Origin: Clostridiales bacterium
Lineage (GTDB): Bacteria > Bacillota > Clostridia > Oscillospirales > Acutalibacteraceae
Length of the DNA: 24,000 bases
Assembly: GCA_036756705.1 (NCBI GenBank)
Contig: DAIOKN010000013.1
Coordinates: 30,957 to 54,956, forward strand
Reading direction: 5' to 3'
Part shown: positions 3,106 through 18,178 of the stretch, piece by piece
Numbering within the stretch: the stretch's first letter is position 1
Layout of the letters: every line of letters starts with the position of its first letter
Notes under the pieces: model-generated
What the model was told of the DNA's origin: nothing
Databases searched by the model: none
What the model saw: only the letters and a program-made list of their open reading frames with translations
Made by a program: the position numbers and the translations under genes

Positions 3106-5118
3106 TCAGAGAATGCTTTCCGGCAAAAATCCGAGGCGTTCCAGCGTCAGCAGGATATTGCGTCCCTCCTGCACTCCGCTGATGATCTGACCGGCCTTCC
3201 GGCTGTCGCCGATGTTGAGAATTTCTGCGGAGCCTCTGAAATCGGTGCGGATCTCCTCCAGATCCGGCGCATATGCGCGCATTCCCAAGCAGATAAATCC
3301 ATAATCCAGCGGAAGCGCGTAGCGCTTTCCATCCGTTTCAACAAGGAACTGTGTTCTCTGAACTTCCAGGAGCCGGGTGCGAGTCAGCTGACGGACTTTA
3401 TATTTCGCCATCATGTTGAAATCGCCAACCTTGGAGATCGGGTCCAAATCGTTGCCGATCGACGGCAGCAGTTCCACAATCGTCACTTCGGCGCCGCGGG
3501 GTGCAAAATACTCCACGACATCCAGGCCGACAGCGCCGCCGCCGGCAATGACCACCTTTTTCCCCGTCATATCTTCCGGGTAGCTGTCCAGATGGTTGAT
3601 CATGGAGAAAACCGTGCGAATCGGGCTGCCCTCCTGATCTGTCACATCCCGCAAGCCGGGAATGTTGGGCAGAACCGGAATGGAACCCGTGGCGTTGACA
3701 ATAAGATCGGGCCGCAGTTCGCTGATCTTGTCCGAAGTGCCGGGCGTATTCAAAAATACCGTCAAGTTCTTAAGCTTTTGAGCTCTGTGGGTCAAATAAT
3801 CGGTAAAGTCACCCATGCGCGTCTTATCCGGCAGCCGGATGAGATCCGTCACGTGCCCGCCAAGATGATTGGACCGCTCCAGCAGAAACACCGTGCAGCC
3901 GACTTCGGCAGCCGTGCAGGCGGCTTCCAGTCCGGCGGTGCCGCCGCCGATGACAACGACTGTGCACGGACGCACAATTTTGCGGTTCCGATACACGTCT
4001 CCGTCGATGACCGAGGGGTTGATGGTGCAGCGCAGCGGGCGGTTTTTCCCGATGCGGTTTCCCGCGCAGCCGATGTTGCAGGAGATGCACTTGCGGATTT
4101 CGTCTTCTCTTCCTTCTTCGGCCTTTCTGGCCCAGTCGGGATCTGCGATCAAAGCCCGTCCAAGCCCGATCAAATCCGCATCGCCCCGCTCCAGAATATC
4201 CTCGGCCACCTGCGGATTCCGAATATTTCCCATCGTGACGGCCGGCTTTCCAAAGCGTTCCCGTACCGCACGCGCCATGTAGGAGCGCCAGCCGTCCGGC
4301 CTAAAGCTGGAGTCAATCTGATATTCCAGCGAATCGTTGAGAGCGCAGGATACGTCGAAAATGTCCACCAGGTCCGCAACATATTTCAGGTATTCCAAAG
4401 TGTCGTTCAGTGTATTCCCACCGGGGACAAATTCATCCGCGGAAATCCGGAGCATCACCGGGAAATTTTCTCCGACCTGGCTGCGGACTTCTCTGGCTAC
4501 CTCACAGAGAAAGCGGGACCGGTTTTCGGGAGATCCGCCGTATTCGTCCGTACGGAGATTGGTAGTGGGGGAGAGAAACTGGCTGAGCAGATAGGAGTGG
4601 CCGGCATGGATTTCAACGCAGTCAAATCCCGCAATTTTTGCCCGTTGTGCCGCCGCACCGAAATCCTTCACAATTTGATGAATTTCGTCCACCGTCAGCG
4701 GACGGGGAATTTCGTTGCCGCGCTTGCTGGGCCGGTCGGATGCGGAAACGGGCTGCATTCCAATCCGGGACGAGCGGGCGGAAGCACCCGCATGGTTGAG
4801 CTGAACGGAAGCGGCGCACCCCTGGGCGTGAAGGGCTTCGCAAAGCTCGAAGAAACCGGGAATAAAGCGGTCTTCATCCATGCGGAGCTGTGTTGTCCCA
4901 TTGGAACCGGCGGGATTCGAGACATTAACGTTTTCTACATCGATCAGGCCGGTGCCCCCTTTTGCCCTCTGAATGTAGTATTTCATGTGCGCCGGGCTGA
5001 TGGAGCCGTCCGCACGGGCAAAGTTTGTCCCCATAGGCATCATAACAACGCGATTTTTGATCGTCAAGCCTTTTAATTTAAGGGGAGAAAATAAGGTCGA
5101 ATATTTTTGATTTTCCAT
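3106..5118 (-). CDS. NADH:flavin oxidoreductase of the 2-enoate reductase / 2,4-dienoyl-CoA reductase (FadH) / BaiCD-BaiH family: OYE-like FMN barrel, 4Fe-4S site and FAD/NAD(P) domain
   Basis: N-terminal OYE motifs (LFSPLKLKGLTIKNRVVMMPM; HAGHSYLLSQFLSPTTNLRTDEYGGSPENRSRF). Cys cluster CISCNIGCAGN...LRC. Two Rossmann motifs (VVVIGGGTAGLEAA; VVIAGGGAVGLDV). Start moved from the track's 5193 to the ATG at 5118 (MENQKYS...), which has AGGAGA 10 nt upstream and removes the overlap with the upstream gene. Confidence 0.9.
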   Translation of the reverse strand: MENQKYSTLFSPLKLKGLTIKNRVVMMPMGTNFARADGSISPAHMKYYIQRAKGGTGLIDVENVNVSNPAGSNGTTQLRMDEDRFIPGFFELCEALHAQGCAASVQLNHAGASARSSRIGMQPVSASDRPSKRGNEIPRPLTVDEIHQIVKDFGAAAQRAKIAGFDCVEIHAGHSYLLSQFLSPTTNLRTDEYGGSPENRSRFLCEVAREVRSQVGENFPVMLRISADEFVPGGNTLNDTLEYLKYVADLVDIFDVSCALNDSLEYQIDSSFRPDGWRSYMARAVRERFGKPAVTMGNIRNPQVAEDILERGDADLIGLGRALIADPDWARKAEEGREDEIRKCISCNIGCAGNRIGKNRPLRCTINPSVIDGDVYRNRKIVRPCTVVVIGGGTAGLEAACTAAEVGCTVFLLERSNHLGGHVTDLIRLPDKTRMGDFTDYLTHRAQKLKNLTVFLNTPGTSDKISELRPDLIVNATGSIPVLPNIPGLRDVTDQEGSPIRTVFSMINHLDSYPEDMTGKKVVIAGGGAVGLDVVEYFAPRGAEVTIVELLPSIGNDLDPISKVGDFNMMAKYKVRQLTRTRLLEVQRTQFLVETDGKRYALPLDYGFICLGMRAYAPDLEEIRTDFRGSAEILNIGDSRKAGQIISGVQEGRNILLTLERLGFLPESIL

Positions 5119-5167
5119 GGCAGCGGCATCTCCTAAGTTAAAGATATGATATGAAAATTCGCTCGGT

Positions 5168-6295
5168 TTACTGCTTTTCCAGGCATTTGGCAATCGTCAT
5201 GCGCTGGATCTGATTGGTCCCTTCAAAAATCTGAAAGATCTTTGCGTCACGCATCAGTTTTTCCACCGGGTACTCGCGGCTGTAGCCGTAGCCGCCGAAG
5301 ATCTGAACCGCGTTCGAAGTGACCTCCTGTGCCGCGTCGGTCACAAATGTTTTGGTGATGGAGCCCTCCATGCGCAGATCGCGGTGTTCATCCTGATCCA
5401 AAAGACGCATGGTATTGTTGACCAGCACGCGCGACGCCTCGGTTTTAATGGCCATATCCGCCAGCATGGATTGCACCATCTGGAATTTGATGATCGGTTT
5501 TCCAAACTGGGTCCTCTGTTTGGCATAGGCCAGGGATTCATCCAAAGCGCGCTGCATGATGCCGACGCACAGCGTGGCGACGAAGGCGCGGGAAATATCC
5601 AGAGCGCTGAGGGCGACTTTCAGGCCTTTGCCCTTTTCGCCGACAATATTTTTCTCTGGAATGCGGGCATCCTCAAAGATCAGTTCCGTTGTGTTGGAAA
5701 GCCGGAACCCCATTTTCTTTTCATGGGAGCCGACGGAAAAGCCGGGAGTGTCACGGTTGATCAAGAAAGCGGTGATGCCCTCTTCCGTGCGGAAAAAGCT
5801 GATGTACAGAGAAGCGCAGGCACCGTTTGTGGCGAAAGTCTTTGTGCCGTTCAAAATATAGGAATCGCCGTCTTTCACTGCCGTTGCACGCACGGCGCCC
5901 GCATCGGAACCTGCGCCGGGCTCCGTCAGAGCAAAGCAGGCGAATTTTCCCGCCGCAAGCACATTGGCAAAGTACTGAGCCTGTTCCTTCGTGCCATAAA
6001 GCATCACATTCCGAAAGGCTACGAAATTTGTGACAAGCGTGTCCGCATAACCGGCATCGACTTTTGCCAGTTCCTCAAACAGCATTGCGGTCGTCTCAAA
6101 ATCGAGCCCCATACCGCCGTATTCCTCCGGAATTTCCGCCATGTGAAGCCCCATGTCGATCGCCGGCTGAAACAGCTCCATAGGACATTCGCCCTTTTCA
6201 TCGCATTCCGCAACGTAGGGTTTTACTGCTTTTTCCGCCATGTCGCGAACCATTTCAATCAATTCGGTCTGTTCTTCCGTATAAAGAAGAGCCAT
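5168..6295 (-). CDS. Acyl-CoA dehydrogenase (short/medium-chain ACAD-like)
   Basis: Classic ACAD sequence throughout, including the C-terminal catalytic-base region IFEGTNQIQRMTIAK. Start set to the ATG at 6295 (MALLYTEEQ...), preceded by GAAAGGA, rather than the track's 6325. Confidence 0.9.
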   Translation of the reverse strand: MALLYTEEQTELIEMVRDMAEKAVKPYVAECDEKGECPMELFQPAIDMGLHMAEIPEEYGGMGLDFETTAMLFEELAKVDAGYADTLVTNFVAFRNVMLYGTKEQAQYFANVLAAGKFACFALTEPGAGSDAGAVRATAVKDGDSYILNGTKTFATNGACASLYISFFRTEEGITAFLINRDTPGFSVGSHEKKMGFRLSNTTELIFEDARIPEKNIVGEKGKGLKVALSALDISRAFVATLCVGIMQRALDESLAYAKQRTQFGKPIIKFQMVQSMLADMAIKTEASRVLVNNTMRLLDQDEHRDLRMEGSITKTFVTDAAQEVTSNAVQIFGGYGYSREYPVEKLMRDAKIFQIFEGTNQIQRMTIAKCLEKQ

Positions 6296-6391
6296 AAGAT
6301 ACATCCTTTCTTTGATGGAAATCAAATGGGAATTTGCACAAAACGTTTCTAAAAATCAATTTCTTTTCTGGCGCAGATTTGCTTTGATAAT

Positions 6392-6418
6392 AATATAACA
6401 CGTTTTTAACCGCTTCAA
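6392..6418 (-). promoter_or_regulatory. Candidate extended -10 promoter for the minus-strand ACAD/reductase operon
   Basis: The minus strand reads TTGAAG-15 nt-(TGt)TATATT (TATATT = 6397-6392, TG = 6400-6399). The short spacer makes the -35 doubtful; the extended -10 is good. Confidence 0.3.
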
Positions 6419-6438
6419 CAATGAAATCCGGCTACAAT

Positions 6439-6458
6439 TGGAACATCCTATAGTTCCA
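6439..6458. promoter_or_regulatory. Inverted repeat TGGAAC-N8-GTTCCA in the divergent control region; candidate activator (LysR-type) site
   Basis: Perfect 6-bp arms read directly. The centre lies about 60-65 nt upstream of the TSS implied by the 6392-6400 promoter, the usual position of an LTTR recognition site. A further GTTCCAAT (revcomp of ATTGGAAC at 6437) occurs at 6731-6738 just upstream of the plus-strand ACAD. Confidence 0.3.
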
Positions 6459-6777
6459 CTTCAAATGCCAGGAGATTCCGATTGGTATTTTAAATTTGCG
6501 AATGCTATAATAAACAAAAAATCAGGCAAGATAGCGTACAGAATCAGCGTTTTAACAATGCTTTCAAGATTGTGCTGCCGTTCCCCGTTTTTCAGGAGGA
6601 AGATCCGCTCCGTTCACACCAACCGTTGAGGATGGGTTTTGTTTTTGAAAATCCTGCTCAGCGTTCAGTTTTACCTTAAATTGTCAAAACTTTCACAGTC
6701 TGCAGCCTGATTTTTTTATTGTTCCCAAAAGTTCCAATCATCCAACATCATTTTTCATATTTTCAGGAGGTAATCAC

Positions 6778-7971
6778 ATGAGCAAGCTGAATGATCAACA
6801 GTTCCAGGCGTACCTAAAGCAAATCCGTGCCTTGGCCGAGGGTCCGTTTGACGAGATGCAGAAGGAAATTGAAGTTACGAATAAGTTCCCGCAGAAGTTT
6901 TACGATCTCGCGATCCAGAATGATCTCTACCGTTTTGCTCTGCCGGAAAAATACGGCGGATTCGGACTGACCGAAAAGCAGATCCTGATGGTGCAGGAAG
7001 AATTTTCACGCGGCCCGGGCGGCATGCGCATGCACTTGCATCATGCGGCCGATCTGAACTGGCGTATTCTGGACGATTTCGGCAGTGACGAGCTGAAAGC
7101 CAAGTATATGAACAAGTTCCAGGACAAATCGGTGTTTGCAAACTTTGCCCTGACGGAAAAAACCGGCGGCACGGGCGCTGACATTCACACCACTGCGGTC
7201 AAAGACGGCGATTATTATGTCGTCAACGGTGAAAAGACTCTAATTTCACATACGGACTGCTCCGATTTCACTTATGTTATTGCCAGTACGGATCCCACTT
7301 CCGACAAAGACAGCCGCCTTTCCGCTTTCTTTGTAGACGTGCACACTCCCGGCTATGAAATCGTTCCGATGCCCCACATGATGGGCTGCCGCGGTGCGGG
7401 CCATGCCGGACTCCGCTTCACCAACATGCGTGTTCACAAGAAATATCTGTTGGGCAAGGAAGGCATGGGCCTTGAAATCGCAATGCATTCTCTCGCCGTT
7501 TCACGCGCTCACATTGCCGTCAGCAACCTGGGCATGGCGCAGAGAATGCTTGAAATGACCATTCAGCGCGCAAAAGACCGCGTCACGTTCGGCAAGCCTC
7601 TTATTAAACGCCAGGCCATCCAGCAGACCATCGCAGACATGGGGACTCAAATTCACGCTCTCCGCCTGATGATTTATGATTTTGCGGAAGACTATGATGC
7701 GGGCCGCAATATTGAAATGAAGGCCGCCATGTGCAAGCTGCACAGCATCAACACGGTTAAGATGGTTTCCGACGCCATGCTTGAAATCTTCGGCGGCATC
7801 GGCTATTTTGAAGGCTGCGAATACGGACCGACCGAGCGCATGTACCGCGACTGCCGCGCCATGTGGCTGGAGGAAGGCCCCCGCACGGTTCAGCGCCTGA
7901 CTGCGTTCCGCGGACTGGAGAAGAGCGGCGGCGTCATTGCTTACAAAGACAACAATTATCAAACCGTTTAA
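6778..7971 (+). CDS. Acyl-CoA dehydrogenase family protein (divergent paralog)
   Basis: 397-aa ORF with a CAGGAGG RBS. ACAD fold motifs are present (ALTEKTGGTGADIHTTAVKDGDYYVVNGEKTLIS). The C-terminal catalytic region reads MWLEEGPRTVQR instead of the usual (Y/F)EGT. Confidence 0.88.
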   Translation: MSKLNDQQFQAYLKQIRALAEGPFDEMQKEIEVTNKFPQKFYDLAIQNDLYRFALPEKYGGFGLTEKQILMVQEEFSRGPGGMRMHLHHAADLNWRILDDFGSDELKAKYMNKFQDKSVFANFALTEKTGGTGADIHTTAVKDGDYYVVNGEKTLISHTDCSDFTYVIASTDPTSDKDSRLSAFFVDVHTPGYEIVPMPHMMGCRGAGHAGLRFTNMRVHKKYLLGKEGMGLEIAMHSLAVSRAHIAVSNLGMAQRMLEMTIQRAKDRVTFGKPLIKRQAIQQTIADMGTQIHALRLMIYDFAEDYDAGRNIEMKAAMCKLHSINTVKMVSDAMLEIFGGIGYFEGCEYGPTERMYRDCRAMWLEEGPRTVQRLTAFRGLEKSGGVIAYKDNNYQTV

Positions 7972-8050
7972 GATCTGGAACAATGTGGGCGGCGCGCCCG
8001 CGTACCGGTGAAACGTGATTTTAGCAAATTCTTAGAAAGAAAGTGATTTC

Positions 8051-9271
8051 ATGAAGCCTTTGGAAGGGGTTAAGGTTGTTGACCTGACTACGTTTTTGGC
8101 TGCGCCGACCACTGCCCGCGTGCTCGGGGAGTGGGGCGCGGACGTGATCAAAGTCGAAGCGCCCAAGGGAGATCCGGGCCGCACCCAGGGCGCGGTGTTT
8201 GGGATGCCTTATGAAGATGAGGAAAACCTCGGCTTCGATATGTCCAACATGAACAAACGCTTCATTACCCTGAACCTGAAAAACAAGAAGGGTATGGGAG
8301 TAATGAATAAGCTCCTTGCGGATGCGGACGTCTTCATTACCAACATCCGCTCTAAATCCCTGGTAAAACTCGGATTGGATTATGAGACGCTGCGTAAAAA
8401 ATACCCCAAACTTGTCTGGGCACAGTGTCTCGGCTATGGCGAAAAGGGACCGGAAAAGGATTCCGCCGGGTTCGATGTGACCTGCTACATGGCCCGGGGC
8501 GGCGTTTTCGGGACCACCGTGAACAAAGGCGATGCCCCCATGATTCCCACCAACGGCTACGGGGATTTCCAGGTTTCCATGTGCCTTGCCTCCGGAATCA
8601 GCACCGCGCTGTTTAACCGTACCCGCACAGGCCAGGGAGACAAAGTTACCGTCAGCCTGCACCATGCAGCTGCCTTTATGCTGAGCACTGCCGTTGTTTC
8701 CGCTCAGTACGGCAACAAATACCCCAAAAGCCGTTTAGAAGTCATTTGCCCGACCAATAATGTTTACCGGACAAAAGACGACAAGCTGATCGCAATGTGT
8801 GCGCCTGAATATGACCGGGACTTCAACAAGATTATGCGTCTGATTGGCCGCGAGGATTTGGTAGACCATCCCGATTACTCAAACTGCGACCACATGAATG
8901 CCTTGCATAAAAATGCTGAGGTTGTGAAGGTCCTCGACGAGGCGATCGGAAAGTTTACCCGCGACGAAATTCTGAAAATCTTTAAAGGCAACGATGTGCC
9001 CTGCGAGGCCTGCTATGAACCGCTCGATATGTACGACGATGAACAGGTTTGGGCAAACGGGGTCATGACAAAACTCGACTGTCCGTCCGGTAAGCGCTGC
9101 ATTGCAACCGCCCCGGTCAAATTCAGTTCTTATACCGAACCGAGCTACAAGGTATCTTCCGCCCAGGGGACGGATACGGTTGAAGTGATGAAAGAACTTG
9201 GGTATGCCGACGGCGAAATCAAAGAATACCTGGCCGAAGGGGCCGTCGGTGGCAAAAAAGCGCTGAAGTAA
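8051..9271 (+). CDS. Family III CoA-transferase (CaiB/BaiF/Frc type)
   Basis: The N-terminus MKPLEGVKVVDLTTFLAAPTTARVLGEWGADVIKVEAPKGDPGR is the hallmark family III CoA-transferase opening. 406 aa is the typical size. Confidence 0.92.
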   Translation: MKPLEGVKVVDLTTFLAAPTTARVLGEWGADVIKVEAPKGDPGRTQGAVFGMPYEDEENLGFDMSNMNKRFITLNLKNKKGMGVMNKLLADADVFITNIRSKSLVKLGLDYETLRKKYPKLVWAQCLGYGEKGPEKDSAGFDVTCYMARGGVFGTTVNKGDAPMIPTNGYGDFQVSMCLASGISTALFNRTRTGQGDKVTVSLHHAAAFMLSTAVVSAQYGNKYPKSRLEVICPTNNVYRTKDDKLIAMCAPEYDRDFNKIMRLIGREDLVDHPDYSNCDHMNALHKNAEVVKVLDEAIGKFTRDEILKIFKGNDVPCEACYEPLDMYDDEQVWANGVMTKLDCPSGKRCIATAPVKFSSYTEPSYKVSSAQGTDTVEVMKELGYADGEIKEYLAEGAVGGKKALK

Positions 9272-9323
9272 GCGCTTTGAAACACAGCGCATCCAAAATT
9301 ATTTAGAAGAGGAGTAAAAGAGT

Positions 9324-10637
9324 GTGAAAGCAAAAAAATACTTGTGGGTTTTAGTAGCCGTTTATGTGGCGTATTTTACCCAGGGCATTCAAGCGCTGAT
9401 TCTAAGCCAAAACAAGATTTCGTTCTACACTCAATGGGGATTTACCGATCCGAAAGCCGGTGCGGCGGCGGTCAGCGCGGCGATTGCCTTCACCGGTCTC
9501 GGCAAGTTTGTGACCGTGTGGATCTGCGGTGAAATCTCCGACCGAATCGGTCGTAAACCGATGATTACACTTGGTGCTCTTGTGTATATCATCAGTTTCT
9601 TAGGATTGCTGATGACCACCAGCAACGTGGTTGCAGATGTCTGCGCTTTTGGTTTAGGCGCGGCGACCTCCTGCTTTGACGGAGCCAGTTACCCCGCCGT
9701 GCAGGAAAGCTGGGTGGAAGCTCCCGGCACCGCTTTGATTTTGATTAAAGGTTTCATTTCTCTGTCCGGCCTGATTTATCCGTTGCTGGTTGTTTCGCTG
9801 ACACAAGGCGGGAACTGGAAGTTCGGAATTATTATTCCGCTTGTGCTGTCGATTATTACCTTGATCCTTGCAGTGATTGCATCATATTCCTACGACGAGG
9901 AAATGAAACGCCGCAAGACCGATCCTGTAGCTAAGGCTGCCTATGAGAAAGAGCTTGCCGAAAAAAAGCATGTTCTTGACTCCGACGCCAAACGGGCGGC
10001 TGCGCGCTTTGTTTCCAAACCCCCGAAATTTGTCGTGGTTGGATGTGCCCTTTACGGTTTCATTGCGATGGCCACCATGTATTCTGCTCAGCAGTATATT
10101 AAGGCGTTCGGCAAAGTCGTTGTCGGCATGAGCGATATGAGTGCCGCCGGCCTGACCAGTGTTTACACGGCGGGTTCTTTAATCGCCGTTGTTGTCTGGG
10201 GCCTGTTCATGGCAAAATTCCGTTGGCGCACTTTGAAAGTCTTGCTGATTGATTTGAGCGGCTCTGTCCTCGGTTATGCCCTGATCTGCACCATGCGTGT
10301 TTCCTCCATGGTTTACCTCGCAAGCTTTATGATCGGCCTCTTTGCGGCCGGCGGCGCGCTTCAGTGCGGCGTTTCTCTCATGCAGGAATTCCATCCGGGC
10401 AACAAAGGCAGAAACCTCGGAATTTATTACACGTTTATGGGCCTCGCATCCTATGCGATGCCGCAGCTGCAGTCCGCGCTGATTGGTTCAAGTACCGAAG
10501 CTGCCGCTACCGTGACCAACCTTTTGGTAAATCTCTGCATGGCGGTGATTGGGCTGATCTTCATGATCTTCCTGAGTGCCAACTACAAAAAGTGGTTTGG
10601 TGTCAGCGTCATGTCCAAGAGGGGAGAAAACGAATAA
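9324..10637 (+). CDS. MFS transporter (12-TM, with central cytoplasmic loop)
   Basis: GTG start with GAGGAG 9 nt upstream. MFS motif A GEISDRIGRKP between TM2 and TM3. Two 6-TM halves separated by a charged loop. Confidence 0.85.
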   Translation: MKAKKYLWVLVAVYVAYFTQGIQALILSQNKISFYTQWGFTDPKAGAAAVSAAIAFTGLGKFVTVWICGEISDRIGRKPMITLGALVYIISFLGLLMTTSNVVADVCAFGLGAATSCFDGASYPAVQESWVEAPGTALILIKGFISLSGLIYPLLVVSLTQGGNWKFGIIIPLVLSIITLILAVIASYSYDEEMKRRKTDPVAKAAYEKELAEKKHVLDSDAKRAAARFVSKPPKFVVVGCALYGFIAMATMYSAQQYIKAFGKVVVGMSDMSAAGLTSVYTAGSLIAVVVWGLFMAKFRWRTLKVLLIDLSGSVLGYALICTMRVSSMVYLASFMIGLFAAGGALQCGVSLMQEFHPGNKGRNLGIYYTFMGLASYAMPQLQSALIGSSTEAAATVTNLLVNLCMAVIGLIFMIFLSANYKKWFGVSVMSKRGENE

Positions 10638-10759
10638 TCCCGATTGCTCCCTGTCCTTTGGAAGATTTCCGGCTTCCAGTTTCAGCAGCAGATAAAAATG
10701 TTTTGACAAGCTGCGCGGCGGCGGGTTGGAATCCATGAAAATCCGGGAAAGTGGCGAAA

Positions 10760-10799
10760 GGCATAAAATCTCAGAGAGAATTCTCTGAGATTTTATGCC
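10760..10799. repeat. 40-nt perfect palindrome GGCATAAAATCTCAGAGAGAATTCTCTCTGAGATTTTATGCC-type (an 18-bp stem with 4-nt loop as RNA)
   Basis: Read directly: GGCATAAAATCTCAGAGA GAAT TCTCTGAGATTTTATGCC. The whole 40-mer equals its own reverse complement. It lies 120 nt after the MFS stop in a ~475-nt non-coding gap and no U-tract follows on the plus strand. The palindrome itself is certain; its function is unknown. Confidence 0.9.
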
Positions 10800-11114
10800 G
10801 TCGTTGCAAGTTCAGTCTTGCTGAGAAAAAATCCCCTTGTCTTGAGCAAAGCCGAAAAATATCATTGTGCCGCTTTTTTAAGTTTAACTGGCTTGCTGCA
10901 AGACGATTTGCTTTCATATTTTTCTTCTCATTTTAAATTTCATCAATGGACCCGGCGTGTTGAGTCCCATGCTTAAAAACTTTTCTAATATTTTTTAATG
11001 GCGGCCGGATTCCGTCCGCCATTAAAAATAGAAACAAGGGAATACCGATAAAATCCAAGTTCCATCTGGCAACTTTCCTAAAAATTTTTATCTAAGAGGG
11101 AGACGATTTTACTT

Positions 11115-11988
11115 ATGTCAGAAAGAATTACAGGGCATACAGAACTCATCGGCTTGATTGCCTATCCGATTCGCCACTCAAATTCGCCTAAAATGCATAA
11201 TGAGGCGTTTGCAAAACTGGGATTGGATTATGCGTATCCTTGCATTCGAGGTAGACAATGATACGTTGGAGGACACCGTGAAGGGATTCCGCGCAATGAA
11301 AGTGCGCGGTTTCAATGTATCCATGCCGAACAAGACGGTGATTCATCAGTATTTGGATAAGCTGACCCCTGCTGCCGAAATGTGTGGGGCGGTCAACACC
11401 GTGGTGAATGATAACGGTGTGCTGACGGGAACCATTACGGACGGAATCGGTTATATGACCGCGTTAAAAGACGCCGGAATTGATATCATCGGGAAAAAGA
11501 TGACGATTGTCGGCTGCGGCGGCGCTGCGACGGCGGTAGAAGTACAGGCGGCCCTGGACGGCGTTGCCGAGATGTCTATTTTTAACGCGAATGATAAATT
11601 TTGGCCGAGAGCGGAACATAATGTTCAGACCATTAACGAAAAAACGAAATGCAAGGCGACTTTGCACAGGCTGGAAGACTTGGACGATCTGAAGTCGGAA
11701 ATTGCGTCAAGCGCGCTGTTTGCCAACGCGACATGCGTGGGGATGAAACCGCTGGAAGGGCAGACCTATATTCCGGACAAATCTTTTCTGCGCCCCGACC
11801 TGATCGTTACCGATGTTGTCTATGCGCCGACAGAGACCGCCCTTTTAAAAATGGCAAAAGAAGTCGGATGCAAAACCATGAATGGGATGGGTATGATGCT
11901 GTTCCAAGGTGCTGCCGCATTTAAAATTTGGACGGGCAGAGAAATGCCGATCGACTATATGAAAAAGGTTCTCGATATTCACTATTGA
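11115..11988 (+). pseudogene. ydiB: Quinate/shikimate dehydrogenase, YdiB-type (AroE family), interrupted by a 1-nt insertion (+1 frameshift) near 11238
   Basis: ATG 11115 (RBS GAGGGAGA) encodes [41 protein letters not shown], then hits a stop at 11259-11261. The +1 frame continues [32 protein letters not shown]...GCKTMNGMGMMLFQGAAAFKIWTGREMPIDYMKKVL to 11988. The joined protein is colinear with E. coli YdiB as I recall it (YPIRHSLSP...YMAFEVDND...VSMPNK...GCKTIDGYGMLLWQGAEQF). Confidence 0.8.
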
Positions 11989-12058
11989 CAACTGCGACAA
12001 AAGGGAAAGGGCATTAGTTCCTTTGGTAATCCCGGGTAGAAGATAGTGAAAGGATGAG

Positions 12059-12829
12059 ATGAACCGTATGAAGACAGTTACCGTAAAAAATGTCGTCCTC
12101 GGCGACGGAATTCCGAAGATTTGCATACCGGTTGTTGCGCAGACCAAAGCGGAGATTGTTGAGGAGATCAAAGGAATCAAGCAGTACCATGCCGACCTTG
12201 TCGAATGGCGCGTAGATTGGTTTCAGGATGCTGACAACATTGAAAAGATTCAGGAAGTTCTGCGGGAGCTTTCTCCCGTCGTTCAGGATTTTCCTCTTCT
12301 CTTTACCTTCCGCACAGCAAAAGAAGGCGGAAACCGGGCCATCGATCGGGAATCCTATGTCAAAATCAATCGAGCCGCTGTGGCGACCGGCGTCGTGGAT
12401 TTGATCGACGTCGAGCTGTTCCAGGGCGATGAAGTCATGAAAGAACTCGTTGAGAGCGCGCATCGGTCGGGAGTGAAAGTAGTGGCTTCCAGCCATGATT
12501 TTAAAAAGACTCCACCCAAAGACGAAATCCTCTACCGGCTGAGAAAAATGCAGGACTTGGGGGCTGATATCCCGAAGATTGCCGTGATGCCCAATTCGAA
12601 GCTGGATGTTTTGAAACTGCTAGAAGCCACTGCGGTCATGTCGGAACAATATGCCAAGGGGCCCATCATTACGATGTCCATGTCCGGCTCAGGCGTGATT
12701 TCCCGCCTGACCGGAGAACTCTTTGGTTCTGCGCTGACTTTTGGAGCAGCCCAAAAGGCTTCGGCACCCGGGCAGATCGGTGTGGAAGATCTTTATGGTG
12801 CTCTGCATCTGCTTCACGATAGCCTGTAA
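12059..12829 (+). CDS. aroD: 3-dehydroquinate dehydratase, type I
   Basis: The 256-aa ORF shows the typical type I DHQase layout (KICIPVVAQTKAEIVEEI...ADLVEWRVDWF...; PKIAVMPNS carrying the Schiff-base Lys region). An alternative start at ATG 12068 is possible. Confidence 0.9.
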   Translation: MNRMKTVTVKNVVLGDGIPKICIPVVAQTKAEIVEEIKGIKQYHADLVEWRVDWFQDADNIEKIQEVLRELSPVVQDFPLLFTFRTAKEGGNRAIDRESYVKINRAAVATGVVDLIDVELFQGDEVMKELVESAHRSGVKVVASSHDFKKTPPKDEILYRLRKMQDLGADIPKIAVMPNSKLDVLKLLEATAVMSEQYAKGPIITMSMSGSGVISRLTGELFGSALTFGAAQKASAPGQIGVEDLYGALHLLHDSL

Positions 12830-12949
12830 GGATGTTTAAAACCGGGCTTTTGCCCCCGGTCCGTTGCTGGCTCGGGGGCGGCCTTTCACGGAAGGCTGCT
12901 CTGCCAGAATATGGGACAAAAAATTTACGCAAAGGAGATATGTCCTCTG

Positions 12950-13822
12950 ATGGGAAGCTGGATTGACGGTCATACCGTTCCGTTTGGTCTGATCGGTTCG
13001 CCGGTGGGACATTCCGGTTCGCCGGCCATGTATAATTATTGTTTTGAAAAAGACGGATTAAACTGCGTCTATCTCGCGTTCGAGGTCGATCTGAAGACCC
13101 TGGACGCCGGGATGAAAGCAATTCGGGCTCTGCACTTTAAAGGAATCAATATCACCATGCCCTGCAAAAGCGCTGCCGTTCAATATGCGGATGAGTGTAC
13201 CAAAGCGGTAAGATTGATTGGCGCAACCAACTGCATGATTTGTGAAAACGGTAAATGGATTGCACACAATACCGACGGAATCGGGTATGTAAATAATTTA
13301 AAAGCACATGGAGTGGATGTGAAGGGCAAGAAAGTCACTCTGATCGGCGGCGGAGGAGCCGGCATGGCAATTTTGGTCCAGTGCGCGCTTTCCGGTGCAA
13401 AGGAAATTTCTGTTTTTAATATCCGCGACGCTTTTATTGGAAATCTGGAGGAACGCGCGGAGCTGATTAACCGCGAGGTTTCCGGCTGCACAGTCCGCGT
13501 CTTTGATCTGGCCGACCAGGAAAAGCTGAAGGCGGAGATCGCAGACAGCCAAATCTTGACCAATGCGACCCGAGTCGGCATGGCTCCGCAGGATCAGTCG
13601 ATGGCGGTCCCGGATGTCAGCGTTTTTCATAAGGGCCTTGTGGTTGCGGATACCGTATACAATCCGCGCGAAACCCGCCTGATTCGAGAAGCCAGAGCTG
13701 CCGGCTGCCTGGGCGTTGAAGGCATCGGCATGCTCGTCCGCCAGGGAGAGGCAGCTTATCAGATTTTCACATCCAAAGCCATGCCTGTAGAAGAGGTTCA
13801 GAAAAAATTTTTTGAAACGTGA
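12950..13822 (+). CDS. aroE: Shikimate/quinate dehydrogenase paralog (AroE/YdiB family)
   Basis: MGSWIDGHTVPFGLIGSPVGHSGSPAMYNYCF...YLAFEVD...INITMPCK...NTDGIGY...LIGGGGAGMAI...ILTNATRVGM. Start set to ATG 12950 (AAAGGAGA upstream) because it aligns with the N-terminus of the 11115 paralog. The track start 12911 adds 13 unsupported residues. Confidence 0.88.
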   Translation: MGSWIDGHTVPFGLIGSPVGHSGSPAMYNYCFEKDGLNCVYLAFEVDLKTLDAGMKAIRALHFKGINITMPCKSAAVQYADECTKAVRLIGATNCMICENGKWIAHNTDGIGYVNNLKAHGVDVKGKKVTLIGGGGAGMAILVQCALSGAKEISVFNIRDAFIGNLEERAELINREVSGCTVRVFDLADQEKLKAEIADSQILTNATRVGMAPQDQSMAVPDVSVFHKGLVVADTVYNPRETRLIREARAAGCLGVEGIGMLVRQGEAAYQIFTSKAMPVEEVQKKFFET

Positions 13823-13981: not shown

Positions 13982-14890
13982 ATGAATTTGTCTCAGCTTT
14001 ATTATTTTAAAAAGTTAGCTGAAGTTCAGCATTATACAAAAGCCGCGAAAGCGCTCTATATTACACAGCCCAGCCTGAGCGAAGCCATTTCGTCGCTGGA
14101 GTCCGAGCTTGACATACAGCTCTTTGTAAAAAGGGGACGCAATATTACGCTTACCCAGTATGGGAAAGAATTTTATCAGTATGTTTCCGCGTCGCTCAAT
14201 GAACTTGACAAAGGTATCGCTGTGATCCAGGAACACGTCAAAGACATCGGAGGCACGATTAATATTGGCTGCATTGCCACTCTGCTGGTCGGATTCATGC
14301 CGCACGCCATGTACTCTTACCGTCAGAAGATCAGCGGAAAAACAGTTTTTCATGTTTTTGAGACTCCGACCGCTGTGGCGGTTGCGGGGCTAAAATCCGA
14401 AATTTATGATGTGGCTTTCTGCTCAAAGGTGGAAGAGTCTGATTTGTGTTTTATGCCGATTCTGGAACAGGAAATGCTGGCACTCGTCAACCGGGACCAT
14501 CCGCTGGCGGACCGTAAAACGATCTCGTTAAAGGATTTGGAAGGTTACAGCCTCGTCACCTATCGCCCGGATATTCAAATCGGCAGAGATGTGGGTGCAC
14601 TTTTAGCTGAAAATGGGCTGAAAGCGGATTGCCTCTTCATGGAAGAAGGTTCAATCGGGGCCTCTGTGAGGGTGAATCCGGTGGTCGGAGTTCTTGCCAA
14701 CACATTATGGCTCAGCCAGTATCCGGATCTGGTGCAGATCCATTTTTCCGATGTTCCAAAAGCGTTCCGAAAAGTTTACATGGTCTACAACAAAAAGCAC
14801 TTTATCACCCTGCCGGTAGAAAGATTCATGAATTTCATCCAGGCAAACCTTGACACACTGGTATCTGAAGACTACCGGTTACAAAATTGA
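13982..14890 (+). CDS. LysR-family transcriptional regulator
   Basis: N-terminal wHTH MNLSQLYYFKKLAEVQHYTKAAKALYITQPSLSEAISSLESELDIQLF is canonical LTTR. 302 aa with a C-terminal effector-binding domain of the right length. Confidence 0.9.
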   Translation: MNLSQLYYFKKLAEVQHYTKAAKALYITQPSLSEAISSLESELDIQLFVKRGRNITLTQYGKEFYQYVSASLNELDKGIAVIQEHVKDIGGTINIGCIATLLVGFMPHAMYSYRQKISGKTVFHVFETPTAVAVAGLKSEIYDVAFCSKVEESDLCFMPILEQEMLALVNRDHPLADRKTISLKDLEGYSLVTYRPDIQIGRDVGALLAENGLKADCLFMEEGSIGASVRVNPVVGVLANTLWLSQYPDLVQIHFSDVPKAFRKVYMVYNKKHFITLPVERFMNFIQANLDTLVSEDYRLQN

Positions 14891-14962: not shown

Positions 14963-17164
14963 TTATGGCTTGTTGGGAGTCGGCGCCCGCATTTTATCCA
15001 TCGGGATCCGCATCAACCCGAGTTTGCTGTTCCAAATATAGATTGCAAAATCCCGCTTGCAGCGGAAAGTACACTCCAAACAAGGGTTCTCATCGCAGTA
15101 ACAGTAAGCGTCAGTATCTGCAAGCGCAAATACGAGGGAATGTTTGGCAGGGGTAACATATTTCAGCTGTCCGCCGGTAAAAGTCCTTAAATAAATCCAC
15201 TCCGGCTCCGGAATACCCTCGCTGCATAGCCAGGTAATGCAAACGGCGTTTTCGTTGAATCCGCCGACAATTTTATAATCAACCTGCAGGCCGCAGCCGG
15301 CTTCCCATTCAGCCGGCTGCAATCTTTGCATGGGCGCGGAACAGCAGACTGCCTCCGCCTCCGCAGCGGGGCTGATTTGCTGGAAAACGCTGCCGCACGA
15401 CTCGCAGAGAAAAAATTGCGGCTCGCTGCAAATCGGTTTCGGTTTACTGGTTTCCCTGGCACGCCGCGTCCCAAATCTTTGATCCGGCATCTTGGATGCT
15501 CCTGTCTGAATCTGCTCGGAAGAGTTTTGCCCCATCCGCCGGCTCAATTCTTTCGCAAGCAGGTATTTTTTTACCTTTCCCGACTCTGTCATCGGGATTT
15601 GTTCGATATTTTCCACGCGTTCCGGCCATCCATACTTGGAAACCTTTGATTTGCGCAGAAAATCCGTCAGCGTTTCCAGCGTAACCGGCGCTTTTGCGTC
15701 GGATGGTACGACAAACGCGCAGATCCGTTCTCCCAAACGGGGATCCGGCATTCCGATTACGGCGGAATCCTTCACGGCGGGGCAGCGGCGCACGTTTTCA
15801 TTGATAGCGTTCGCATTTAAATTGACGCCGCCCCGGATAATCACATCCTTGATTCTTCCGATTACCCGGATCTTTTTTTCCTCATCGCGGATGCAGAGAT
15901 CCCCGCTGTGGAACCATCCCTCGTCGTCCAGAACTTTCCCTGTGGCGGCGGGGTCGTTCATATAACCGACAAAAACGTTGGGACCGCGGGACCATTCTTC
16001 TCCTTCGGAACCGTCGGGAGCGTCTTTGCCGTCTCTGCCGACAATGCGCACCTCGACTCCGTCAATCGGCCTTCCGGCGGAAGGCTTGATATCCGCCGAC
16101 CACTCGTCCGGGCGGATCAGCGTATGGGGGATGCTTTCTGTGGAGCCATAGCACTCGCAGACACGGAGCCCGTATTTGGAAGCCTCTTTGACCAGATAGG
16201 ATGGAACCGGAGCACCACCGCAGATAAACAGCCCCAGTGTCGGCATTCTTTGCGGATTCGTCTGAAAAAATTTAAGAATATCGTAGACAAAAGTCGTGGT
16301 CCCCATCGAATAGGTGCAGTGTTCACGGTTTACCAGATTCACCGCATCGGCAACGGAAAAGTGCTTTTGCAGAACGAGTTCCGCGCCGGCCAGCAGGGTG
16401 GACACAATCCCGTGTGCAAAACCTGTGGCGTGATAGAGCGGAGCCGGCATGAACATGATGTCCTCTGCGGTGATTCTGACCGCCTGATTGAATCCCTGTT
16501 CGCAAAAGATCAGGTTGTTGTGCGTCAGCATGGCGCATTTCAGCGCGCCCGCCGTGCCGGAAGTGCAAATGGCTGCCGCTACGGAATCGCTGCCGGCAGG
16601 ACCCGCACTGCGAAGCAGATCCGGATTTTTGGGGGTGTTCATTATCTCCCGAAGGGTTGGAAAAGCGGCAGGCTCCGCCGACTGAGCGTCTTCCACCTGA
16701 ATCACAGTGCAAACGTCCGGATGACGGCGGCACAGCTGTTTCGCAAGCGTGGCATATTCCACGCTTTTGTAGCGGACCGGGCAGAGATAGGCCCGGGTCC
16801 CGACCCGGCGGAAGATTTTAGACAGTTCTTCCCCTTGAAAGGAAGGGGAAAGCGGGTTTGCAACCGCACCGACTTTCAGGCAGGCAATGGTGATGATGGC
16901 AAATTCGCTCCACACCGGAAGCTGATAAGAGACCGTGTCGCCGGGGCGAATCCCGGAAGAAAGAAAATAGGCGGCCAAACGGCTGCTCTTTTCGTCCAGT
17001 TCCCTGTAGGTATACCGAAAGCCGCGGTCATCCGTGACATAGGTGCGGTTTCCGTACCGCTTGACAGTATCGTTCCAGCAATCCAACAGAGTCCGTGACG
17101 TCCAATATCCTTTTTTATAATAGAGATCTTTCTGGCGGTCGTTGATTTTTATCTTGTTTGTCAT
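14963..17164 (-). CDS. AMP-forming aryl/alicyclic-acid CoA ligase (residues ~1-545) fused to a C-terminal desulforedoxin-like CxxC...CC domain and a Cys-rich SOR-like domain (~175 aa)
   Basis: Adenylation motifs are present: TSGTAGALKCAMLTH, YGSTE, WFHSGD, GRIKDVIIRGGVNL, PMTESGKVKK. The N-terminus YYKKGYW resembles EntE/DhbE and alicyclic-acid ligases. The C-terminal FFLCESCGSVFQQISPAAEAEAVCCSAPMQRL matches the desulforedoxin pattern C-E-x-C-G-x-V...V-C-C-x-x-x-M. Confidence 0.88.
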   Translation of the reverse strand: MTNKIKINDRQKDLYYKKGYWTSRTLLDCWNDTVKRYGNRTYVTDDRGFRYTYRELDEKSSRLAAYFLSSGIRPGDTVSYQLPVWSEFAIITIACLKVGAVANPLSPSFQGEELSKIFRRVGTRAYLCPVRYKSVEYATLAKQLCRRHPDVCTVIQVEDAQSAEPAAFPTLREIMNTPKNPDLLRSAGPAGSDSVAAAICTSGTAGALKCAMLTHNNLIFCEQGFNQAVRITAEDIMFMPAPLYHATGFAHGIVSTLLAGAELVLQKHFSVADAVNLVNREHCTYSMGTTTFVYDILKFFQTNPQRMPTLGLFICGGAPVPSYLVKEASKYGLRVCECYGSTESIPHTLIRPDEWSADIKPSAGRPIDGVEVRIVGRDGKDAPDGSEGEEWSRGPNVFVGYMNDPAATGKVLDDEGWFHSGDLCIRDEEKKIRVIGRIKDVIIRGGVNLNANAINENVRRCPAVKDSAVIGMPDPRLGERICAFVVPSDAKAPVTLETLTDFLRKSKVSKYGWPERVENIEQIPMTESGKVKKYLLAKELSRRMGQNSSEQIQTGASKMPDQRFGTRRARETSKPKPICSEPQFFLCESCGSVFQQISPAAEAEAVCCSAPMQRLQPAEWEAGCGLQVDYKIVGGFNENAVCITWLCSEGIPEPEWIYLRTFTGGQLKYVTPAKHSLVFALADTDAYCYCDENPCLECTFRCKRDFAIYIWNSKLGLMRIPMDKMRAPTPNKP

Positions 17165-17460: not shown

Positions 17461-17913
17461 TTATAAAACTTCAACCCGGTCTAAGACGTATAGCAATACG
17501 CTTCCAATTGTGACCGCTTTATTGTTTTCGTCCCGAATAACGGCCCTTACGTTGCAGAGATTCCGGCCGACTTTTTCCGGGGCTGCGGTGCAAGTGAGCT
17601 TTTTTCCGCCGCCCGGGCGCAGAAATTGGAGGTTCATGGCCGCGGTGGTCACGTCGAGGCCGAGGCTGAAGCAGGAAAAGGCTGAGATCACGTCGACGAT
17701 GGTGCTGAGCGCTCCGCCATGGCAGGTGCCGTGAAGATTCAGATTCTTCTCTGACAGCACAATTTCACCTTTTGCCGTACCCTCGCCGAGATCGGTCAGG
17801 CACACATCGGAGGCGAGCGGATAACGCTCCTCCGTGTTGAATTTTTCAAAAAGGTACCGGTACCACAGTTCCTTGGTCCATGGCTTCCCATGATTTGTCT
17901 TGTCAAAGGCCAT
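17461..17913 (-). CDS. Hotdog-fold thioesterase, PaaI/EntH (4HBT class) family
   Basis: The LHGTCHGGALSTIVDV motif and ~150-aa size are typical of PaaI/YbdB-type thioesterases. Start set to ATG 17913 (MAFDK...), which has GAAGGA 8 nt upstream; the track ATG at 17922 overlaps that RBS. Confidence 0.85.
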   Translation of the reverse strand: MAFDKTNHGKPWTKELWYRYLFEKFNTEERYPLASDVCLTDLGEGTAKGEIVLSEKNLNLHGTCHGGALSTIVDVISAFSCFSLGLDVTTAAMNLQFLRPGGGKKLTCTAAPEKVGRNLCNVRAVIRDENNKAVTIGSVLLYVLDRVEVL

Positions 17914-18178
17914 TTCAATCATCCTTCGTTTGTTTTAGCGGTCCGGTTTTTAGCCGGGCTTGAAATTGCACTTTCATTTTATAAGAAGCAGTAGTGCGAA
18001 ACAAGTGGATTCACCGGATTTATATATCGGAACTCTCCGGATTTGCTTTGCAGACCATAAAAATTTCCTATCAATGCGGCGCCTGAAAAGCCATTTTACA
18101 TTGCTTTTTTTAGCCGGAATTGATCTTTTCCGTTAAAACAAGGGGAGATTTAAGAGACAATTTTAGATATTTCTACCG

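Follow-up and report, generated by a model that had tools for sequence, protein, structure and literature searches.

Class I 2Fe-superoxide reductases (SORs; desulfoferrodoxins), including those from Desulfoarculus baarsii (2ji1/1vzg) and Desulfovibrio desulfuricans (1dfx), consist of an N-terminal CxxC...CC site followed by an immunoglobulin-like β-sandwich, and are genetically tied to rubredoxin or oxidative-stress genes. The Cys spacing of this site, including the adjacent pair, is also that of the Fe(Cys)4 center of desulforedoxin (Dx) from Desulfovibrio gigas (1dxg/1cfw), a 36-aa stand-alone homodimer. In this study, we describe a protein with the same two-domain organization that is, in contrast, genetically tied to an acyl-CoA ligase. 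The DNA analyzed (24,000 nucleotides from a Clostridiales bacterium; assembly GCA_036756705.1, contig DAIOKN010000013.1, positions 30,957 to 54,956), referred to as the window, contained a single uninterrupted open reading frame (ORF) of 733 aa on the reverse strand, in which a FadK-type ligase was joined to a desulfoferrodoxin-like protein (DFXL). DFXL is a name coined in this analysis for the unnamed family of the extension, and its residues are numbered from Met559 of the ORF. On balance, we consider it probable that loss of the ligase stop codon produced this fusion, and that DFXL is a desulfoferrodoxin-derived partner subunit of the ligase, functioning as a redox-active or metal-dependent accessory.

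The ligase domains AMP-binding (PF00501) and AMP-binding_C (PF13193) were found at residues 32-401 and 456-530, with 243 and 52 bits against Pfam cut-offs of 29.9 and 24.5, respectively. The motifs TSGTAG (201-206), YGSTE (339-343), and PMTESGK (524-530), the last with the A10 catalytic Lys, were present as the ANL core motifs. The top NCBIfam model by far was NF004758/PRK06087 (FadK-type "medium-chain fatty-acid--CoA ligase"), which aligned end-to-end over residues 1-551. Since the score (672.5 bits) did not reach the equivalog cut-off (736 bits), the ligase is FadK-like, but no FadK equivalog; its identity with E. coli FadK was 37% over the full length. A preliminary description of this DNA had proposed that a complete adenylate-forming ligase is read through into an extension without a stop, and this was borne out; every peptide quoted there was also present in the ORF. 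Two details required correction: the ~30-aa "basic linker" consisted of 13 residues of the native C-terminal tail of the ligase and the conserved N-tail of DFXL (FGxRRxRxTxKP), and the extension contained 13 Cys (and 1 His), not 14.

At the junction, a TCC codon (15494-15496, reverse strand) was found where an Oscillospiraceae relative (locus L003) has the TGA stop codon of the ligase: GCA TCC AAG ATG in the window versus GCG TGA ATC ATG. Positions 14963-15490 corresponded exactly to the internal ATG through the TAA stop (175 codons), and separate small proteins from other genomes began with MPDKRFGPRRARET at the residue matching Met559. Since these homologues start at Met559, and AGGAG precedes the ATG, the extension is a gene in its own right, and, by this comparison, AGGAG is the retained ribosome-binding site of a formerly separate small gene. 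The intact Shine-Dalgarno sequence and ATG indicate that the fusion is young, and, because both are intact, free DFXL may still be produced alongside the fusion protein. In the proposed mechanism, loss of the stop codon would lead to translation through the 13-residue tail into the 175-aa DFXL.

Among the 80 loci examined (out of 118 species with DFXL), an orthologous ligase (42-52% identity) was located directly upstream of DFXL on the same strand in 77 and downstream in one; it was absent in two Sporomusa genomes. The two genes were fused in none of these 80 loci. Overlaps of up to 76 nt and gaps of up to 87 nt accounted for most junctions; most often, the two genes were in the same frame, separated by a stop codon plus two codons. 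The ligase gene overlapped the small gene by 11 nt in a different frame in Caproiciproducens sp. NJN-50 (L001) and L091, the two were 5 nt apart in L092, and they were in the same frame, with TGA plus one codon in between, in an Oscillospiraceae metagenome-assembled genome (MAG; L003 and L004). The nearest relatives of the window (69-76% identity) were all unfused. The pair was kept in operons of at least three different arrangements. Judging from these junctions, nearly all relatives have DFXL as a gene of its own, with translational coupling.

A full-length 733-aa query, on the other hand, retrieved three further fused proteins with 99% query coverage and 43-44% identity: P0310 (746 aa; 12 contigs from several runs), P0311 (731 aa), and P0312 (747 aa; NCBI MAG). 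Thus, the fusion architecture sought in the preliminary description does occur elsewhere, and the possibility that the fusion in the window is unique was ruled out. No Met was found at the junctions of these three proteins, which are therefore obligate fusions. The DFXL domain of P0310 was 74-78% identical to those of unfused L079, L077, and L065 (with stops or frame changes at the junction), while those of P0312 and P0311 were 55 and 47% identical, respectively, to that of unfused P0123, a separate gene with the same synteny, 4 nt downstream of its ligase. Since the fused domains were nearest to unfused genes, fusion appears to have arisen at least three times, and every known case joined the C-terminus of the ligase to the N-terminus of DFXL. 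Such recurrence is classic Rosetta-stone evidence pointing to a physical or functional partnership and, together with the usual adjacency of the genes, suggests that DFXL proteins are partners dedicated to the ligase. The 733-aa fusion was itself filed in a 90%-identity cluster under a 175-aa representative, P0001 (clusters of P0001 and P0304); representative lengths may hide longer fused members, and hit lengths therefore do not exclude fusions.

The preliminary description had also cautioned that an assembly-derived loss of a stop codon or a frameshift may have joined two genes. An assembly or sequencing error of this type would be in line with the fact that ligase and DFXL are encoded by separate genes throughout the 80 species loci and in the nearest relatives, and an apparent 1-nt insertion near 11236, which frameshifts the first shikimate dehydrogenase gene, means that the window sequence may contain errors. 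However, the identical 733-aa protein was encoded on five contigs, including the NCBI MAG GCA_002399225.1, an ENA MEGAHIT assembly, and the Logan assembly of SRR1561995, and the gene DNA was identical among the assemblies encoding it. A contig from a second run (SRR1562004; L006) had the same stop-less junction, with one amino acid difference elsewhere. Since the junction was identical across three assemblies and a second run, an artefact is very unlikely. Furthermore, the difference between TCC and TGA is of the substitution type, not an indel, and there are three other, independently fused proteins, one of them on 12 contigs. The loss of the stop codon therefore stood as an event in the organism, while its origin in the assembly did not. 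The exact junction DNA had no match in a metagenome scan of JGI contigs. On the evidence of the junction, the gene fusion in this ORF is genuine and evolutionarily young, and arose by loss of the ligase stop codon.

A search with the last 159 residues yielded 160 homologues at E≤0.01 (best non-self values of 1e-77 to 1e-72); among the matches listed, lengths were 139-253 aa, and every named protein was a "hypothetical protein". They were found in Caproiciproducens, Oscillospiraceae, Lachnospiraceae, Acetobacterium, Clostridium ljungdahlii, C. autoethanogenum, and related organisms. In a scan of one genome per species, the family (~175-200 aa) was present in 118 of 185,579 species, mostly Clostridia, and its only labels were "hypothetical protein" and one automatic UniRef label. 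In an alignment of 39 members, eight Cys were kept in at least 38 and C21 in 36. C29-x2-C32 and C49-C50 were kept in 38-39 members, and C132, C137, C140, and C144 were invariant. The conserved blocks consisted of the FGxRRxRxTxKP tail, GGYNxNA, WIYLKTFTGGxLKY, and FALADxDAYxYCDEDPCLECTFRCKRGF, and the family signature may be written as FGxRRxRxTxKP, CxxC...CC, TFTGGxLKY, and ADxDAYxYCDxxPCxECxFRCKRGF. The copy in the window had every invariant column and was 69-76% identical to members from Caproiciproducens and Oscillospiraceae. P0005 (L092; activated-sludge metagenome) was the sole sequence in the alignment with HG for the CC pair of the Dx site, and CEPCG for CESCG; either decay of this copy or an error may account for it. 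In the P0063 cluster (C. ljungdahlii, C. autoethanogenum, C. ragsdalei, and C. coskatii; L013 and L014), several GenBank records gave a 128-aa protein without CxxC of the Dx site, while the full 175-aa form began at TTG with a 73-nt overlap with the ligase gene; the shorter records look like a misannotation of the start codon.

The relationship with SOR was significant only by the family profile and structure model; with the extension as a single sequence, Pfam and NCBIfam yielded no more than sub-threshold Dx matches. The Desulfoferrod_N domain (PF06397) scored 18 bits (cut-off of 23) with the copy in the window, while 15 of the 39 members matched it (best E value of 3.5e-7); a Pfam check proposed in the preliminary description thus failed for the single copy, but succeeded for the family. 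The TIGR00320 (dfx_rbo) equivalog gave 15.4 bits against a cut-off of 146.9. The DFXL profile matched the 2Fe-SORs 2ji2, 2ji1, 1vzg, and 1dfx in the PDB at E=5e-8 to 7e-7, with an alignment including both domains (profile positions 24-135 versus chain residues 5-117); the value for the 36-aa chain of Dx, whose motif forms only one module of the larger DFXL, was 0.11. When 1.84 billion representative proteins were scanned with the profile, matches weaker than E~1e-11 became canonical desulfoferrodoxins of ~125 aa. An AlphaFold model from the family alignment (predicted local distance difference test (pLDDT) of 78 and predicted template modelling score (pTM) of 0.77) gave seven significant Foldseek matches in the PDB, all of which were SOR/desulfoferrodoxin (E of 4e-5 to 2e-4, probability of 1.0, and TM (target) of 0.59-0.67); the C132-C144 region was modelled at low confidence (pLDDT of 53-72). 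These results indicate that DFXL descends from desulfoferrodoxin.

In the HMMER alignment with D. baarsii SOR, Cys10, Cys13, Cys29, and Cys30 of center I aligned with C29, C32, C49, and C50 of DFXL, and the axial Cys116 with the invariant C132; the position of the structural Trp79 was also kept. In contrast, His49 and His75 aligned with variable positions, and His69 with an invariant Trp (W87), while His119, located past the end of the alignment, fell on D/N135 by the offset from the aligned Cys. The sole His in the window copy was at a non-ligand position. The Glu47/Lys48 pair of SOR was absent from DFXL. DFXL also differed from 2Fe-SOR by three extra invariant Cys in an insert of ~15 residues (C-x4-C-x2-C-x3-C), an additional basic N-tail with a ninth conserved Cys, and a length greater by ~50 residues. 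Therefore, a desulforedoxin-type motif, an SOR-like β-sandwich, the lack of the four His ligands, and an inserted Cys cluster (C137, C140, and C144), all of which had been pointed out in the preliminary description, were each recovered by alignment or by the AlphaFold and Foldseek analyses that it had suggested. Since the His ligands and Glu47/Lys48 are gone, DFXL fails the defining test of a superoxide reductase, and, as far as can be read from its residues, it cannot work as one.

DFXL has accordingly kept the Cys4 site of Dx, the β-sandwich of SOR, and the axial Cys, lost the four His, and gained three invariant Cys. It most likely carries two all-cysteine metal centers, namely, the Dx-type site and a second site that would be formed by the old axial Cys with C137, C140, and C144. 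The spacing C-x4-C-x2-C-x3-C is a variant half-motif in subtypes of 2[4Fe-4S] ferredoxin (PMC11430716); C132-C144 may thus hold either a mononuclear site or an Fe-S cluster. From the conserved residues and gene pairing, DFXL most likely serves the ligase as a partner subunit that binds metal through Cys alone, and does not act as a superoxide reductase. As a stoichiometric partner, it would be attached at or near the mobile C-terminal domain of the ligase. The surrounding pathway (ACAD, Etf or OYE, CoA-transferase, and ligase) may be ydi/fadK-like, reductive, and linked to quinate/shikimate, and, as in caffeate respiration, a CoA-transferase loop may feed it together with the ATP-dependent ligase, which would act in priming. 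DFXL might then link the redox state of the pathway with the priming step, in which the ligase consumes ATP, or transfer electrons to neighboring flavoenzymes; such redox coupling or electron relay is speculative. The most specific form of this proposal, a redox-active two-center iron protein that, in complex with the ligase, gates it by redox state or couples ATP-dependent acid activation to electron transfer into the ACAD/OYE enzymes, is doubtful at present.

Several results weigh against a partnership confined to the ligase or based on redox chemistry. AlphaFold of the full 733-aa fusion, using a block alignment with three paired rows (the other natural fusions) and many unpaired rows, predicted no confident docking (pLDDT of <50 at junction residues 547-572; pTM of 0.73). 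In two Sporomusa genomes, ACAD2 and CoA-transferase flanked DFXL, no ligase was present within 6 kb, and the N-terminal tail of DFXL was still conserved; the tail as a ligase-specific docking element is consequently unsupported. In L067, DFXL came after EtfA, with the ligase 1 kb downstream. Judging from these loci, DFXL may function for the pathway as a whole and not solely for the ligase. In addition, a redox role is not obviously required, since ligases need no electrons, and the Cys4 motifs could bind structural Zn. One of the Sporomusa loci (L086; Sporomusa acidovorans CP155571, 2454-9887) contained an HdrD-like CCG/4Fe-4S protein, ACAD2, DFXL, family III CoA-transferase, UbiD-type decarboxylase, and PAC_bac, with LysR on the opposite strand, and the other (L082) shared its ACAD2-DFXL-CoA-transferase core.

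Among the alternatives, the main rival is a structural helper, in which two Zn(Cys)4 knuckles stabilize a small domain acting as a chaperone or activator of the ligase, without any redox function; we regard this as unlikely, albeit deserving serious attention. MbtH-like proteins, which are small, encoded beside an adenylate-forming enzyme, sometimes fused with it, and obligatory partners of the adenylation domains of nonribosomal peptide synthetases, provide the model. The tight 1:1 genetic coupling and recurrent fusion with the ligase, the loss of the catalytic Fe site, and the dispensability of electrons for ligases all suit such a helper, as do the frequent occupancy of Cys4 sites by Zn and the weak Zn-ribbon Pfam matches of several DFXL members. 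However, the adjacent-Cys (CC) geometry has been kept, which is very unusual, and typical of desulforedoxin Fe centers, not Zn ribbons. Furthermore, DFXL occurs without an adjacent ligase beside ACAD2 in Sporomusa (with the HdrD-like Fe-S protein at L086), and no MbtH homology was found: the resemblance is by analogy only, with no relationship in sequence or fold, and, to our knowledge, MbtH proteins have no metal sites.

The Sporomusa loci, which share ACAD2, CoA-transferase, and DFXL with the others, point to the next-ranked alternative, a pathway-level electron carrier for ACAD-like enzymes (especially ACAD2), for which adjacency to the ligase would be inherited operon order and the fusions tolerated accidents. 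The location of DFXL after EtfA in L067, and the equivalent position of ferredoxin-like YdiT beside fadK in E. coli, fit a carrier as well. Nevertheless, all of the at least three independent fusions joined DFXL to the C-terminus of the ligase, and none to ACAD or CoA-transferase, and the adjacency of ligase and DFXL has outlasted operon rearrangements that relocated ACADs; a carrier of this type is improbable. A persisting function in the detoxification of superoxide or oxygen, shielding oxygen-sensitive enzymes of the pathway, is scarcely credible. The desulfoferrodoxin ancestry and retention of center I are compatible with it, whereas the four His ligands of the Fe(His)4Cys center and Glu47/Lys48 are absent, and the TIGR00320 score (15 bits) was far from the cut-off (147 bits). 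A Cys4-saturated iron site leaves no open coordination position for SOR chemistry.

The positions of the features described above and of the neighboring genes are summarized in Table 1.

Table 1. Features of the ligase-DFXL fusion gene and neighboring genes, in positions of the window.
Feature	Position	Strand	Basis or remarks
Fusion ORF: FadK-type acyl-CoA ligase + DFXL	14963..17164	-	733 aa; domain scans, 5 public contigs
Ligase body, residues 1-545	15530..17164	-	AMP-binding + AMP-binding_C; core motifs present
Native C-terminal tail of ligase QNSSEQIQTGASK, residues 546-558, now linker	15491..15529	-	Alignment with relatives
AGGAG Shine-Dalgarno sequence, 8 nt upstream of internal ATG	15499..15503	-	Window sequence; GGAG-type motifs at same position in relatives
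Internal ATG, Met559 (start codon of stand-alone homologues)	15488..15490	-	Alignment to homologues
Conserved basic DFXL N-tail, small-protein residues 1-23 (F6, R10, K16, P17, and C21 conserved)	15422..15490	-	Alignment; predicted disordered
Desulforedoxin-type module, residues 24-57, C29-x2-C32 + C49-C50	15320..15421	-	Profile alignment
SOR-like β-sandwich without His ligands, residues 66-165, invariant W87	14996..15295	-	Profile alignment, AlphaFold, Foldseek
C132-x4-C137-x2-C140-x3-C144 motif YCDENPCLECTFRC	15059..15097	-	Alignment; C137, C140, and C144 in family-specific insert
4HBT hotdog thioesterase	17461..17922	-	Directly upstream; same operon as in Caproiciproducens relatives
LysR regulator (convergent)	13982..14890	+	Beside gene pair in 73/80 species loci
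OYE/BaiCD-like flavoenzyme	3106-5193	-	
ACAD1	5168-6325	-	
ACAD2	6778-7971	+	
Family III CoA-transferase	8051-9271	+	
MFS transporter	9324-10637	+	
Shikimate/quinate dehydrogenases	11158-11988, 12911-13822	+	
Type I dehydroquinase	12059-12829	+	

The pathway genes travelling with the pair spanned 3106..13822, and the window also held TctAB and an ABC transporter around the pair. The commonest operon elsewhere was (ACAD2)-CoA-transferase-ACAD1-EtfB-EtfA-ligase-DFXL-transporter-LysR, while the fused loci had the same gene set together with shikimate dehydrogenase and TctCBA. In some variants of the operon, a metallo-β-lactamase-fold protein recurred next to DFXL or the fusion (L067, 6556-7560; L094, 12362-13345), and L092 and L094 also contained a GFO_IDH_MocA oxidoreductase; these two proteins may be additional enzymes of the pathway. 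The first shikimate dehydrogenase gene in the window (ORF 11158-11988) looked frameshifted within 11115-11240: residues 1-41 of the Caproiciproducens homologue matched frame 3 at 11115-11237 (95% identity), while the remainder matched frame 1, and there was apparently one extra C in TATCCTTGCA of the window versus TACCTGGCG of the relative (Y-L-A). This may be either a pseudogene or a sequence error. The NCBI MAG contig (L088; GCA_002399225.1, DHDF01000091.1) departed from the window and the ENA and Logan assemblies from its position 5766, inside LysR (~14400 in the window), with LysR called as 148 aa instead of 302 and a displacement of the downstream genes by 128 nt; an insertion or a difference in assembly is the probable cause.

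The ligase and DFXL each belong to known superfamilies and are not categorically new; the new features are the remodelled center II of DFXL and its obligate link with a CoA ligase. In the literature searched on desulfoferrodoxin with CoA ligase, ydi/fadK, and quinate/shikimate pathways, neither the DFXL family nor its operon was described, and no precedent was found for a dedicated metalloprotein partner of an adenylate-forming CoA ligase. If the proposed partnership is correct, such an enzyme would have a partner of this type, and the SOR scaffold would have been re-tooled for a role outside oxygen detoxification by exchanging a His4Cys iron site for an all-Cys site, which is of interest for metalloprotein evolution. 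The natural fusions would then be a Rosetta stone that makes the interaction between ligase and DFXL directly testable. If redox gating also proves correct, DFXL would supply a component so far missing from the enigmatic anaerobic pathway of the ydi/fadK type, which is tied here to the conversion of quinate/shikimate in gut and fermentation Clostridia. The operon marked by the pair is conserved among Lachnospiraceae of the gut, acetogens (C. ljungdahlii, C. autoethanogenum, and Acetobacterium), and chain-elongating Oscillospiraceae. The main value of the present analysis lies in this testable partnership and in the link with a ydi/fadK-type pathway.

Two known systems are comparable with the operon as a whole. 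In the caffeate-respiration operon carABCDE of Acetobacterium woodii, a CoA-transferase loop and a priming ATP-dependent ligase are combined with an electron-bifurcating ACAD/EtfBA reductase. The typical DFXL operon (CoA-transferase, ACAD, EtfB, EtfA, ligase, and DFXL) resembles it in logic, but differs in gene order, and its substrate is probably derived from quinate/shikimate, not a phenylacrylate as in carABCDE; we know of no DFXL gene in the car operon. By this analogy, the DFXL operon may encode a CoA-dependent reductive pathway for an acid derived from quinate/shikimate.

The gene set of the window is closely paralleled by the still unexplained E. coli cluster ydiN-ydiB-aroD-ydiF-ydiO-ydiP-ydiQRST-fadK (NC_000913.3, 1772512-1784677; L087). 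Both contain an MFS transporter, quinate/shikimate dehydrogenase, type I dehydroquinase, CoA-transferase, ACAD, and ligase, and EtfBA is common to the E. coli cluster and most relatives with DFXL. The dehydroquinase of the window was 55% identical to AroD, the shikimate/quinate dehydrogenases 42-44% to YdiB, and ACAD1 31% to YdiO. On the other hand, the CoA-transferase belongs to family III in the window, while YdiF is annotated as an acetate-CoA transferase, and E. coli has no DFXL, ferredoxin-like YdiT and YdiS preceding fadK instead. Quinate/shikimate dehydrogenase and type I dehydroquinase genes were located beside those for the FadK-type ligase, ACAD, and CoA-transferase in three separate lineages, Enterobacteria, Oscillospiraceae, and some Lachnospiraceae, and this arrangement suggests that the ydi/fadK system acts on an acid derived from quinate/shikimate, not on fatty acids.

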